From Alkalilimnicola ehrlichii MLHE-1 (GTDB taxonomy: Bacteria > Pseudomonadota > Gammaproteobacteria > Nitrococcales > Halorhodospiraceae): 32,000 nt of DNA. The stretch spans positions 2,910,001 through 2,942,000 of the forward strand of contig NC_008340.1 in the NCBI RefSeq assembly GCF_000014785.1, written 5' to 3'. Below, in pieces: positions 28,869 through 32,000 of the stretch. Numbering within the stretch: the first letter of the stretch is position 1; the number at the start of each line of letters is the position of its first letter. The position numbers and the translations under genes were made by a program. The notes under the pieces were generated by a model. That model was not told where the DNA came from. It did no database searches and saw nothing but the letters and a program-made list of their open reading frames with translations.

Positions 28869-29114
28869 TCAGCCGAGCCGTGGCCCCAGGTAGTCGAGCA
28901 GGTCCTGCAGGCTGTGCAGCCGGCCGTAGTCGGCCTCCGGGATGTCCACCCCCAGCCGCTTGTGCAGCGCGGTCAGCAGATTGAGCGCATCCACCGAGTC
29001 CAGGTCGTACTCGTCACGCAGGGACGCCTGATCGTCCACCGCCGCCACATCGACATCGGGGGCGATGCGGGCCAGCTCCTCGAGAATGGTGCGGCGCAGG
29101 TCTTCTTGCTTCAC
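28869..29114 (-). CDS. Acyl carrier protein (stand-alone phosphopantetheine-binding domain)
   Basis: 81 aa. The [11 protein letters not shown] motif carries the Ser attachment site in the usual helix-2 context. GTG 29114 overlaps the E2 stop (GTGA), which implies translational coupling. Confidence 0.8.
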
Positions 29115-30436
29115 AGGGCCTCCGGCTGCTGCAGGTCTTGTTCGATCCGGTTAAGGAAGCGGGCGCCCAGATGGCCGTCGCAGACCCGGTGATCCGCCGC
29201 CAGCGAGACATCCACCGCCGGCCTGGCGGCCAGCCCATCCCCCACCACCACCGGCCGCCGGCGCACACGGCCGAAGCCGATCATGGCCACCTGGGGCGGA
29301 TGGATGACGCCGTAGACGGTGTCCACGCCGCGCTCCCCCAGGGCGGTGATGGTGGCCGTCGGGGCCGTGACCTCCGAGCTGCGCAGGCCGCCGCCCCGGG
29401 CCCGGTCGATGAGGTCGCGCAGGCGGACCATGAGGTCAGGGACATTGAGCCGGTCCGCGTCCAGCAGCGCCGGCGCGATCAACCCGCCGCCACGCAGGTG
29501 GATGGCCACGCCCAGGTGCACCGAGTCCGCGGGCTGGAAGCCCTGCTCATGGTAGTGGCCGTTGAGGTCCGGGTACTTGCGCAGGGCCCGCGCTGCGGCC
29601 TTGGCAAACAGCGCGGCCATCACCAGCCGCGATTCCGGCGGGCGCTCGCGGTTGTAGGCGGTCAGCCAGTCGTGGGCCGCCTTCAGGTCCACGGTGGTGT
29701 TCAGGTAGTAGTGGGGGATCTCCCGCTTGGAACGGGTCATGGCCGCGGCGATGGCCCGCCGCATCTCGTCACGATCGAACCCGGCCGGGCGTGTCGGAGG
29801 GGGCTCCGCCGGGGCCGCGGCAGGCCGGGCACCGGCGGCGTGTTCCACGTCACCGGCCAGCACCGCGCCCCCCGGCCCACTGCCCCGCAACCCGGCCGGG
29901 TCCACGCCGAGCTCCCGGGCACGGCGGCGGGCGGCGGGGGAGAGCCGCACCGGCGCCCGGCCTGGCGTGCCGGCCGGGGGTTCCGGCCCCGACACAGCCG
30001 GTTCCGGCTCCGGCTCCGGCTCCGGCTCGGGCTCGGGCTCCGGCTCCGGCTCCGGCTCCGGCTCCGGCTCCGGCTCGGGCTTCGGCTTGGGCTTCGGCTT
30101 GGGCTTCGGCTTGGGCTTCGGCTTGGGCTTCGGCTCGGGCTTCGGCTTGGGTTCCGGCTTGGGTTCCGGCTTGGGGCTCCCCTCGCCCGCTTCCAGGCCA
30201 CGGCCATCGCCGATCCGAGCCATCGGTGCCCCCACCGGCAGCCGGGTGCCCGGTTCTTCGTAGAGCGCCTCGACCACCCCCGACTCAAACACCTCCACCT
30301 CGATGGCGCCCTTGTTGGTCTCCACCACCGCGATGACCTGGCCCTTCTCCACCCGGTCGCCCGGCCGCACCCGCCACTCCACCAGTTCCCCGGACGCCAT
30401 GTCGGCGCCCAGGGAGGGCATGAGAAAATCGCTCAT
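29111..30436 (-). CDS. 2-oxoacid dehydrogenase E2 component (lipoyl domain, PK/PE linker, subunit-binding domain, acyltransferase core)
   Basis: Trimmed to ATG 30436 (SD GGAGGGGG), which overlaps the E1 stop as ATGA. Lipoyl domain: [44 protein letters not shown]. Peripheral subunit-binding domain: [28 protein letters not shown]. Catalytic core with IPHYYL and the active-site motif [15 protein letters not shown]. Confidence 0.9.
29998..30175. repeat. In-frame hexanucleotide microsatellite blocks (CGGCTC/CGGGCT and GGCTTC/GGCTTG units) encoding the (PK)n-(PE)n E2 linker
   Basis: The plus strand reads ...ggctccggctccggctccggctcgggctcgggctccggctcc... and then ...gggcttcggcttgggcttcggcttgggcttcggcttggg... 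On the minus strand this translates to [57 protein letters not shown]. Confidence 0.9.
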
Positions 30437-32000
30437 TCCGCCCCCTCCATGACCTGTCGGGCGGCCCCGACGATGTCCTCCACCTGGGGCAGGGCTGCCG
30501 TCTCCAGGTGGCGTGCGTAGGGGATCGGGATCTCGGCCGAGCAGACCCGGGCGATGGGGGCGTCCAGGTACCACAGGGCCTGTTCCGCCAGGATGGCGCT
30601 GATCTCCGCAGCCAGGCTGCCGGTCTTCCACCCCTCGTCCACAATCACCGCCCGCTGGGTGCGGGTAACCGATGCCACCAGGGCCTCCGTATCCAGCGGG
30701 CGCAACACCCGCAGATCCAGCACTTCGGCCTCGATACCCTCCTCTGCCAGCGCCTCGGCCGCCTCCAGGGTCTTACCCAGACTGCCGCCGTAGGTGATCA
30801 GGGTCAGGTGCTGGCCCGGCCGGCGGATGGCGGCCTGGCGGATATCCACCCCCTGCGGGCAGGGGGTCAGCTCGCCCTCCTGGTTGTAGAGCAGGACGTG
30901 CTCGAAGATCACCACCGGGTTGGGGTCATGCAGCGCCGCCCAAAGCATGTGCCGGGCGTCCTCCAGGGTGCCCGGCGCCAGCACCTTGAGCCCGGGCACG
31001 TGGGCGTACCAGTTCTCCAGGCTGTGGGAGTGCTGGGCAGCCACCTGCCGGCCGGCGCCGGTGGCCATGCGGATCACCAGGGGGACGGGGAACTGGCCGC
31101 CGGACATGTGCAGCAGCGTGGCGGCGTTATTGACGATCTGGTCCAGCGCCAGCAGGCTGAAGTTCACCGTCATGATCTCGACGATGGGCCGGGCGCCGCC
31201 CAGGGCCGCGCCGACCCCGGCGCCGGTGAAGCCGTTCTCCGAGAGCGGGGTGTCGCGCATCCGCTCCGGCCCAAACTGCTCCAGCAACCCGCGGGAGACG
31301 GCGTAGCAGCCCCCGTAGTGACCGATGTCCTCCCCCATCATGAAGCTGCGCGGCTCATGGGTCAGGGCCTCGATCAAGCCACGCCGGAAGGCCTCGCGGA
31401 AGCTCAGCCGCTCCGGCTCGGTCGCCACATCGGGGGGCGGAGGGGGCGCCTCCGACACCGGTGCGCAGACGTGATCCAGCAGGGTATCCGGGGACTCCCA
31501 TTCGGCCTGCTCGGCGAAGGCCACGGCGGCGTCAATCTCCTCACCGATTTCCCCGTCCATGGCCTCCAACTCCCCCTCGTGCAGCGCCCCGGAGCGGCTC
31601 ATCCAATCACTGAGCCGCCGGATCGGGTCGCGGGCCTGCCACGCCTCCACCTCCGCCTTGTCACGGTAGAGCTGCGGGTCGAACATGGAGTGGGCCCGGA
31701 AGCGGTAGGTCTCGCACTCCAGGAAGCGCGGCCCCTCGCCGGCACGCACGGAGGCCAGGGCCCGGCCGCTGGCGGCCTCCACCGCCACCACATCCATGCC
31801 GTCCACCCGCTCGGCGGGGACGCCCAGGGCCTCCGCCTTGCGGTACAGCTCGGTCTGGGCGTGGGCGAGGTGCAGGGCCGTCCCCATGGCGTACTGGTTG
31901 TTCTCGCAGACGAAAAAGACCGGGAGCTGCCAGAGGGCGGCCAGGTTGAGCGACTCGTGGAACACCCCCTCGGCCACGGCGCCGTCGCCGAAGAAACAGG
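30433..32000 (-). CDS. Thiamine-diphosphate-dependent 2-oxoacid dehydrogenase E1 component with alpha and beta subunits fused in one polypeptide; 5' end lies beyond the right edge
   Basis: The frame stays open to position 32000 (...[40 protein letters not shown], the E1-alpha TPP motif). The track's M at 31977 is an internal GTG. A linker ([15 protein letters not shown]) joins an E1-beta part: [33 protein letters not shown]...FG.ER..DTPLSE.GF.G.G.GAA..G.RP.VE.MT.NF and [16 protein letters not shown]. Confidence 0.88.

Follow-up and report, generated by a model that had tools for sequence, protein, structure and literature searches.

Three overlapping genes at the right-hand end of the window

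The 32,000 nt stretch of the Alkalilimnicola ehrlichii MLHE-1 genome analyzed here (contig NC_008340.1, positions 2,910,001 to 2,942,000; hereafter the window) ends on the right in three minus-strand genes, which encode an E1 component and an E2 dihydrolipoyl acyltransferase of the 2-oxoacid dehydrogenase type and a small acyl carrier protein (ACP). An earlier note on this DNA had described the three genes as overlapping from stop to start, and this is what we read from the sequence: E1 and E2 share ATGA at 30433..30436, in which the E1 stop codon TGA occupies 30433-30435, and E2 and ACP share GTGA at 29111..29114. The GC content of the window is 69.5%, and long spurious open reading frames (ORFs) are common in it; the start sites of E2 and ACP are backed by the N-termini of orthologues, MNRDELR among them. 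The features are as follows.

30433..32000, minus strand: E1 component, C-terminal 521 of ~669 aa, with the N-terminus beyond the window end
31897-31989, minus strand: thiamine diphosphate (ThDP) motif GDG-X26-NN of E1, read from the sequence
from ~31407, minus strand: beta part of E1 (Pfam Transket_pyr)
30472-30837, minus strand: Transketolase_C domain of E1 (Pfam)
29111..30436, minus strand: E2 dihydrolipoyl acyltransferase, 441 aa, by its Pfam domains
30212-30430, minus strand: lipoyl domain of E2, with the Lys42 codon at 30311-30313
29998..30180, minus strand: tandem 6/12-nt repeat in the E2 linker, encoding (PK)n(PE)n (TRF period 12, 15.2 copies)
29843-29950, minus strand: E3/E1-binding domain of E2 (Pfam E3_binding)
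29117-29767, minus strand: catalytic domain of E2, with the His416 codon at 29189-29191 in the motif DHRVCDG
28869..29114, minus strand: ACP, 81 aa (Pfam PP-binding, 2.6e-10)

Neither a sigma-70-like promoter nor an intrinsic terminator was found inside 28400-32000, the junctions of the three genes included. The earlier note had also seen no gene for dihydrolipoamide dehydrogenase (E3) downstream, and the next genes are indeed a convergent small Ub-Mut7C ORF followed by a CobW GTPase gene.

The part of the operon beyond the window was read from a second A. ehrlichii strain (L039), which shares 99.2% nucleotide identity with the window along 13 kb. There, the gene order is AMP-binding ligase (588 aa), E1 (669 aa in full length, at 99% nucleotide identity), E2 and ACP. 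The called genes of the ligase and E1 overlap by 11 nt, and the ligase is preceded by a 219-nt intergenic region and then by a divergent Rce1-like gene. The ligase gene and its promoter are ~2.2 kb past the window end. The genes in the window are almost certainly the last three of a four-gene operon that begins at the ligase. Ketosynthase, acyltransferase, nonribosomal peptide synthetase (NRPS) or polyketide synthase (PKS) genes, which the earlier note had proposed to look for upstream, did not turn up, the only upstream operon gene in L039 being that of the 588-aa AcsA-type ligase.

The ligase-E1-E2-ACP cassette is conserved in several phyla

The order ligase-E1-E2-ACP (hereafter the cassette) occurs in Gamma-, Alpha- and Betaproteobacteria, Acidobacteria, Myxococcales and Actinobacteria. 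It is present in two Vibrio genomes, Halomonas, Marinobacter, Novosphingobium, the gammaproteobacterium AB-CW1, Mameliella and Thiohalocapsa, and further in Bryobacterales (Acidobacteria), Microbulbifer, a myxobacterial metagenome-assembled genome and a soda-lake-like metagenome contig. Methylocystis, Streptomyces and Rhodococcus carry it on megaplasmids, and E2 matches were also found on plasmids of Burkholderia, Cupriavidus, Azospirillum and Leisingera. Across the loci the ligase spans 572-605 aa, E2 366-453 aa and the ACP 79-93 aa, and the overlaps are mostly of 4 nt. When the genome collection was scanned with a single E2, the matches were mostly ordinary actinobacterial E2 genes, and only two Vibrio loci were orthologous; the ordinary genes served as controls in the neighborhood comparison below. 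An exact-sequence search with the E2 of the window had no match.

The linkage was surveyed in metagenome contigs with a profile built from the ACP only, which avoids a bias towards E2. The scan gave at least 542 ACP-family matches, and 80 of their loci were examined. E2 lies directly in front of the ACP in all 72 loci with more than 300 nt upstream, E1 lies upstream in all 39 with more than 1.7 kb, and the ligase in 24 of the 25 with more than 3.9 kb. The earlier note had asked for such a survey and had allowed that the adjacency of E2 and ACP might prove not to be conserved; the survey decisively shows that it is. Because the 4-nt overlap of E2 and ACP recurs (9/10 genome loci) and E2 precedes the ACP in 72/72 metagenome loci, the E1-E2-ACP arrangement is far beyond chance. 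The triad proposed in the note appears to be a real, conserved and co-transcribed unit devoid of an E3 gene.

Blast clustering of the flanking ORFs revealed no recurrent neighbor or consumer gene, the flanks differing between genomes. No E3, phosphopantetheinyl transferase (PPTase) or conserved ketosynthase, PKS or NRPS neighbor was found in the ~46 loci that have 3 kb or more of flank. Rfam detected no riboswitch or other RNA in seven cassette loci. The cassette itself seems to be self-contained and laterally spread.

A few loci depart from the common layout. In L088, a 548-aa ORF in the position of the ligase scores below the ligase-profile threshold (900 bits) and lies next to a KatG-like gene; in L117, three small ORFs are inserted between the ligase and E1. 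Downstream of the cassette in L109 (9130-12060) is a single occurrence of a 977-aa fusion of PP-binding, AMP-binding and acyltransferase domains, which is Aas-like, that is, of the acyl-ACP synthetase/2-acylglycerophosphoethanolamine acyltransferase type.

E1 resembles pyruvate dehydrogenase and E2 is divergent

As the earlier note had stated, the alpha and beta subunits of E1 are fused in one chain, in which Pfam finds E1_dh (the C-terminal half of alpha, 5.6e-50), Transket_pyr (3.2e-35) and Transketolase_C (1.4e-34). E1 is fused in some cassettes and encoded by ordinary separate alpha and beta genes in others; as the orthologous cassettes with split genes are many, the fusion was rejected as a defining trait. 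The E1 of the window exceeds the cutoff of the NCBIfam pyruvate dehydrogenase (PDH) E1 beta model NF006667 (394 bits, cutoff 321), and in Halomonas the full-length orthologue scores above the cutoffs of both the PDH E1-alpha equivalog TIGR03182 (428 bits against 394) and the E1-beta subfamily model. Among solved structures, human PDH E1 beta (298 bits) and alpha (248 bits) match best, with branched-chain enzymes far behind. By these criteria, E1 is predicted to be of the pyruvate dehydrogenase type.

The features of E2 that the earlier note had recognized are all intact: the lipoyl-accepting Lys42 in VETNKG, the subunit-binding domain, and the catalytic His416 in AADHRVCDG. The catalytic Asp420 is in the last of these motifs too. 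Its Pfam domains are Biotin_lipoyl (residues 3-75), E3_binding (163-198) and 2-oxoacid_dh (224-440). Conservation in the alignment of the E2 family extends to the lipoyl Lys, the subunit-binding domain, the Ser/Thr oxyanion residue and DHRxxDG; the lipoyl motif reads (N/S/A/Q/E)-K-(G/A) against the usual DKA. The best NCBIfam match, PDHac_trf_mito, reaches 204 bits against a cutoff of 445, and E2 remains under half of any E2 equivalog cutoff; the best PDB match is mammalian PDH E2 (177 bits). Since E2 scores so far below the cutoff despite having all three domains and the catalytic residues, it probably represents a divergent subfamily. The E3-binding domain is kept while no E3 gene adjoins the cassette, and thus the housekeeping E3 (Lpd) is presumably borrowed. 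The linker between the domains is polymorphic in length between strains, being 12 aa longer in L039.

Classical PDH of the mitochondrial, alphaproteobacterial and Gram-positive type is encoded as PdhA/PdhB-PdhC-Lpd and has a heterotetrameric E1. The cassette is like it in the family scores of E1 alpha and beta and in the closest solved structures, which are human PDH E1 and mammalian PDH E2. It differs in having no E3 gene in any examined copy, in the low equivalog scores and non-DKA lipoyl motif of its E2, in the added AcsA-type ligase and dedicated ACP, and in its FNR-type promoter motif and stress-island neighbors. Whereas classical PDH delivers acetyl to free CoA, the ACP that accompanies E2 in 72/72 loci argues for another or a further acceptor.

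To our knowledge, the Qnc-type systems are the only described precedent for the transfer of an acyl group from E2 to an ACP. QncN, QncL and QncM comprise a ThDP-dependent E1-like enzyme, a lipoyl/acyltransferase E2 and a small ACP, and the acyl group passes from the lipoyl arm to the ACP, not to coenzyme A (CoA); QncN is the ThDP domain alone, while QncL is a fusion of PYR, TK_C, lipoyl and acyltransferase domains (PMC6335953). The Qnc and SclQ1-4 (scleric acid) glycolyl-ACP systems resemble the cassette in combining a dedicated ACP with a ThDP-dependent E1 and a lipoyl-acyltransferase. The earlier note had suggested a quinocarcin/naphthyridinomycin-type feeder of a lipid or secondary metabolite pathway. 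In such a system, E1 would detach a two-carbon (glycolaldehyde) unit from a ketose phosphate and E2 would charge the ACP with glycolyl destined for a secondary metabolite; the ligase could then salvage glycolate. The precedent has exactly such an E1/E2/ACP triad (PMC6335953), and in one locus (L127) a gene for phosphoketolase, which uses the same sugar phosphates, lies beside the cassette. We nevertheless consider this role very unlikely. E1 reaches the thresholds of the PDH families, and the pocket of the ligase described below is that of an acetate-specific Acs. The domain architecture, compared by published layout, is unlike that of QncN and QncL: the cassette has a fused E1 or a pdhA/pdhB pair, a separate E2 with a subunit-binding domain, and in addition the acetate ligase. 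The Qnc system draws on a ketose phosphate and lies inside an NRPS cluster with a PPTase, whereas the cassette has no conserved biosynthetic neighbors in the ~46 loci; no NRPS or PKS lies beside it, except for one unrelated chalcone-synthase/ligase/ACP set located 2.7-5.6 kb downstream of the cassette ACP in L128 and in that locus only.

The carrier protein

The last gene of the operon encodes, as the earlier note had recognized, an 81-aa carrier protein with the phosphopantetheine-accepting Ser40 in DLDSVD (codon 28995-28997). It is 100% identical to a protein annotated 'acyl carrier protein' in A. ehrlichii MLHE-1, and the signature of its family opens with IAP...DLDSMD. The protein has the four-helix PP-binding fold with a DSL-type serine, and its best PDB profile matches are ACPs of fatty acid synthesis (FAS) and mitochondrial ACPs (~51 bits); all NCBIfam ACP models remain below cutoff (best 33 bits versus 71). 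Where E. coli AcpP has the acidic recognition helix ALEEEFD, 87 distinct cassette ACPs carry ALHKRLG with a basic HKR patch. The cassette ACP therefore shares the PP-binding fold with FAS-type AcpP, but neither equivalog-level similarity nor the acidic recognition helix II. This replacement of the acidic helix by a non-FAS, basic surface argues for dedicated partners. In the Thiohalocapsa locus (L042), a second PP-binding ORF of 88 aa (2686-2952) is found ~2 kb upstream of the cassette, besides the cassette ACP.

The upstream ligase

With 869-874 bits, the ligase scores above the cutoff of 729 set for the acetate--CoA ligase equivalog NF003313, and the nearest structure is that of B. subtilis AcsA (PDB 9g79, 541 bits). 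Ten cassette ligases were aligned and their residues numbered according to Salmonella Acs. The acetate pocket formed by V310, T311, V386 and W414 and the catalytic Lys609 are conserved in all ten, one T311A excepted, and the A-motifs are conserved as well. Trp414 presumably limits the pocket to acetate size, a role that we take from the Acs literature. We infer that E1 and the ligase are built for the C2 pair of pyruvate and acetate.

This pocket bears on another proposal, a role in lipoylation. The ligase would charge the ACP with an octanoyl or lipoyl moiety, which would serve to modify the lipoyl domain of E2 with its unusual NKG motif. The motif of this domain does depart from DKA, and octanoyl-ACP is the natural donor of LipB. 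No LipB, LipA or LplA gene is linked to the cassette, however, and we rejected the proposal, whose chances appear close to nil, because Trp414 and the acetate-sized pocket would exclude C8 acids.

Three Arg residues, R191, R526 and R584, are conserved in Acs for the CoA/thioester step; Arg526 stabilizes the thioester-forming conformation, and Arg584 binds the 3′-phosphate of CoA in Salmonella Acs (PMC10455477). All ten cassette ligases have Leu or Met at the position of Arg526, as do 119 of their 120 closest homologues; the motif pattern is unmatched in the remaining one. R191 is kept in seven of the ten. The cassette ligase shares the acetate pocket, Lys609, Arg584 and the A-motifs with the short Bacillus AcsA (NF003313; PDB 9g79), and differs from it in Leu/Met for Arg526 and in the translational coupling of its gene to E1, E2 and ACP. 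Loss of Arg194 in the CoA loop of Acs was rejected as a diagnostic, as the genuine B. subtilis AcsA is likewise devoid of Arg194. Judging from these comparisons, the thiol-acceptor steps and the carrier bear family-specific changes.

The presence of the ligase in 24/25 loci, the altered residue of the thioester step and the non-FAS surface of the ACP support the view that the ligase may act on the ACP. Two observations count against it, namely that Arg584 is retained in 10/10 cassette ligases and that the score is at the level of the acetate--CoA ligase equivalog, because of which the ligase may simply use CoA. They also lend weight to the alternative that the cassette is an ordinary PDH plus Acs, that is, a second, low-oxygen set of acetyl-CoA-forming isoforms (PdhAB-E2 and AcsA) using free CoA, in which the ACP would be a scaffold, regulator or sensor subunit. 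PGAP names the genes acsA, pdhA and pdhB, the ligase and E1-alpha exceed equivalog cutoffs, and E2 has all canonical catalytic residues. This alternative, however, assigns no function to the ACP, although its gene accompanies that of E2 in 72/72 loci and is translationally coupled to it. Nor does it fit with an E2 far below every PDH/OGDH E2 equivalog cutoff (204 vs 445 bits) or with a ligase family that has uniformly lost Arg526, and we hold it to be rather improbable.

Promoter motif and gene neighborhood

Upstream of the ligase, an exact TTGAY-N4-RTCAA palindrome, which we take to be an FNR/Anr/FixK/Dnr-type box, is present within 150 nt of the start codon in 13 of 36 loci; segments of equal size drawn at random from these loci contain it in 0.8% of cases (binomial p~1e-18). 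Of the 13 boxes, ten are located at -48 to -74 from the ligase start, and 16 of the 36 loci have a box when one mismatch is allowed. A. ehrlichii has the near-match TTAACcgggATCAA at -59 (L039 4822-4835, ~2.3 kb beyond the right end of the window). Genes for Crp/Fnr-type regulators adjoin the cassette in two loci.

The neighbors of the cassette in Streptomyces fungicidicus and Rhodococcus DK17 include several universal stress proteins (USPs), nitroreductase, Hsp20, a GAF sensor kinase with its response regulator, PfkB, nicotinate phosphoribosyltransferase, flavodoxin, alcohol dehydrogenase and ppsA. This actinobacterial neighborhood resembles what we take to be a DosR/DevR-type dormancy island. 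Profile searches found USP near eight cassette loci, Hsp20 near five and PpsA/PPDK-like genes near five, an enrichment that was not visible by Blast clustering. Of the 46 cassette loci whose flanks reach 3 kb or more, 12 have a USP, Hsp20 or PpsA-like gene nearby, and none of 30 control regions surrounding ordinary E2 genes has one (Fisher p=0.001), although these controls are taxonomically unmatched and some of the profiles were seeded from cassette loci.

Since the FNR-type motif, the DosR-like islands and the USP, Hsp20 and PpsA neighbors agree, the cassette is probably under low-oxygen or stress control. Besides the nature of the controls, it speaks against such control that the A. ehrlichii sequence has one mismatch to the relaxed consensus and two to the strict FNR box, and that a pattern search for the DosR box in the actinobacterial loci was uninformative in high-GC DNA. 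As to single loci, that of Microbulbifer also contains PPK2, phosphoketolase and phosphoribosyl pyrophosphate (PRPP) synthetase genes, and one further cassette locus contains PRPP synthetase and glycogen genes.

A tentative pathway through acetyl-ACP

From the families, the conserved residues and the gene context, we infer that the ACP would accept acyl groups from both E2 and the ligase, with pyruvate and acetate as the substrates, under low-oxygen control and with a preferred direction of the ligase. In this model, the ThDP-dependent E1 would oxidatively decarboxylate pyruvate and reductively acetylate the lipoyl-Lys42 of E2. The catalytic domain of E2 (His416/Asp420) would transfer acetyl to the thiol of the phosphopantetheine arm carried by Ser40 of the ACP, instead of or in preference to free CoA, and housekeeping Lpd, recruited by the E3-binding domain, would re-oxidize the lipoyl arm. 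The ligase would work on the same ACP and interconvert acetyl-S-ACP + AMP + pyrophosphate (PPi) and acetate + ATP + HS-ACP. The ratio of acyl to free thiol on a private, protein-bound carrier could be pushed far from that of the CoA pool, so that the irreversible decarboxylation of pyruvate might over-charge the private thiol pool and pull the slightly uphill reverse Acs reaction. The favored net conversion would be pyruvate to acetate + CO2 + NADH + ATP, which might supply maintenance energy under oxygen limitation or dormancy.

We put forward the model as a whole, a low-oxygen module in which pyruvate-derived acetyl passes via a lipoyl-E2 to a private ACP and a ligase interconverts acetyl-ACP with acetate and ATP, as a tentative one with somewhat less than an even chance. 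Its parts differ in strength. That acetyl-ACP is the shared intermediate of E2 and the ligase we believe slightly more than we doubt. The lipoyl-to-ACP transfer suggested in the earlier note would remain the most economical reading because the ACP is obligately and translationally coupled to E2, while the quinocarcin-type feeder role attached to it falls away. CoA reaches the active site of E2 through core openings of 30-40 Å (PMC8421416), which would admit a 9-kDa ACP. A closed route from pyruvate through acetyl-ACP to acetate and ATP is favored because the cassette has no linked consumer and shows energy-poor, low-oxygen signals. The net ATP-yielding direction is favored because a private thiol allows an extreme acyl/free-thiol ratio, but we regard it as doubtful.

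For this direction there is a precedent in Syntrophus aciditrophicus, in which an AMP-forming Acs runs physiologically toward ATP and the bias of SaAcs1 maps to G196/T197 of the CoA-binding loop (PMC4992975, PMC13404658). Unlike the cassette ligase, SaAcs1 is a long-type Acs that works on acetyl-CoA and has neither a carrier protein nor a linked PDH, and in the cassette ligases, as in B. subtilis AcsA, the loop in question is shorter by seven residues.

Further points weigh against the model. E2 shows no recognizable loss of CoA-site residues, the CoA-contact residues having not been mapped. A search with the ACP profile against 1.84 billion representatives returned ~1,100 stand-alone relatives at E<=1e-10, its few long matches being tandem ACPs, an OsmC fusion and unannotated tails; neither there nor among the 120 closest ligase homologues was an E2-ACP or ligase-ACP fusion found. 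The reverse Acs reaction would need PPi and high AMP and is uphill at standard conditions, by roughly +10 kJ/mol on our own estimate. High NADH levels, such as those of hypoxia, usually inhibit an NAD-linked PDH. Finally, every reaction step is read from sequence and context.

The two enzymes could instead converge on the ACP as suppliers. E1/E2 would load it from pyruvate and the ligase from acetate at the expense of ATP, for a consumer encoded elsewhere that might use acetyl-ACP as a primer or donor for a lipid, a storage compound or an acetylation under low oxygen. The same gene-linkage data support this scheme as support the favored model, and the direction is thermodynamically easy for both enzymes. 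A precedent for this logic is found in S. aureus, where the 2-oxoacid dehydrogenase complex Bkd starts from 2-oxoacids and the short-chain AMP-forming ligase MbcS from free acids, and both arrive at identical acyl thioesters (PMC10026030); they differ from the cassette in their unlinked genes, branched C4-C5 acyl groups, CoA as the acceptor and the lack of a dedicated ACP. Convergent supply is unlikely in our estimation, as no candidate consumer is conserved beside the cassette in the ~46 loci with usable flanks from several phyla. FAS enzymes use an acidic patch on helix II that is missing from this ACP, and spending two ATP equivalents per acetate in an energy-poor state would need a strong sink.

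The genes for PpsA/PPDK-like proteins that adjoin the cassette in five loci would also fit with an ATP-driven reversal. The ligase would over-charge the ACP, E2 and E1 together with E3 and NADH would carboxylate acetyl to pyruvate, and PpsA would make phosphoenolpyruvate (PEP). Such an oxygen-tolerant, ferredoxin-independent 'pyruvate synthase', serving as an electron sink or for acetate assimilation in hypoxia, is self-contained and would explain the need for a private carrier, and by back-of-envelope mass action a barrier of ~+35 kJ/mol could be offset by extreme ratios. But no carboxylating 2-oxoacid dehydrogenase E1 is known, decarboxylation by these dehydrogenases is regarded as irreversible, and the sequence of E1 shows nothing unusual, so that we judge the reversal highly improbable. 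If true, it would be a new CO2-fixing and electron-sink reaction in hypoxia, feeding the often adjacent PpsA.

2-Oxoacid dehydrogenase complexes are textbook CoA-dependent machines, and public annotation treats the genes of the cassette singly, as acsA, pdhA, pdhB, E2 and 'acyl carrier protein (fatty acid biosynthesis)'. By analogy, the cassette would be PDH-like at the level of E1 and E2 and Qnc-like at the proposed step from E2 to the ACP. No description of an Acs-PDH-ACP cassette was found in open-access full texts and preprints, and known enzyme families are joined here in a conserved, apparently undescribed four-part combination with a dedicated carrier and low-oxygen-type signals. If the ACP is the acceptor, as in the favored model, the cassette would open a new branch point of central carbon metabolism with a pool of protein-bound acetyl groups kept apart from acetyl-CoA. 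Its FNR-type motif and DosR-like surroundings suggest a role in the survival of aerobes without oxygen, including Rhodococcus, Streptomyces and halophiles.

Other genes in and around the window

A PEP carboxykinase gene lies 2 kb downstream of the A. ehrlichii cassette, and nitroreductase and phasin genes lie upstream of it. On the plus strand, the window contains glycine cleavage genes at 7152-12168: GcvT at 7152-8246, the GcvP-alpha ORF at 8369-10105 and GcvP-beta at 10534-12168. The GDC-P match of GcvP-alpha begins only at residue 121, which may point to a miscalled start or to a preceding GcvH-like part. These genes form the second lipoyl-dependent system in the window and are likewise devoid of an E3/L-protein gene.

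Long ORFs at 67-1092 (plus strand), 1214-1951 (plus strand) and 2057-3910 (minus strand) have no Pfam match at E<=1e-5 and may not be genes. A 1185-aa protein encoded at 16047-19604 (plus strand) has a Pyr_redox_2 segment (residues 406-594) as its sole Pfam match, is not a dihydrolipoamide dehydrogenase, and is listed as RP005_N + Pyr_redox_2 in the gene table of the sister strain. At 20211-24838 on the minus strand are a gene for a cyanate lyase and, following it, genes for an NrtABC-like ABC transporter (ATPase, permease and NMT1-type binding protein) and an ANTAR anti-terminator regulator, which, from the same gene table, look like a cyanate/nitrate assimilation unit.

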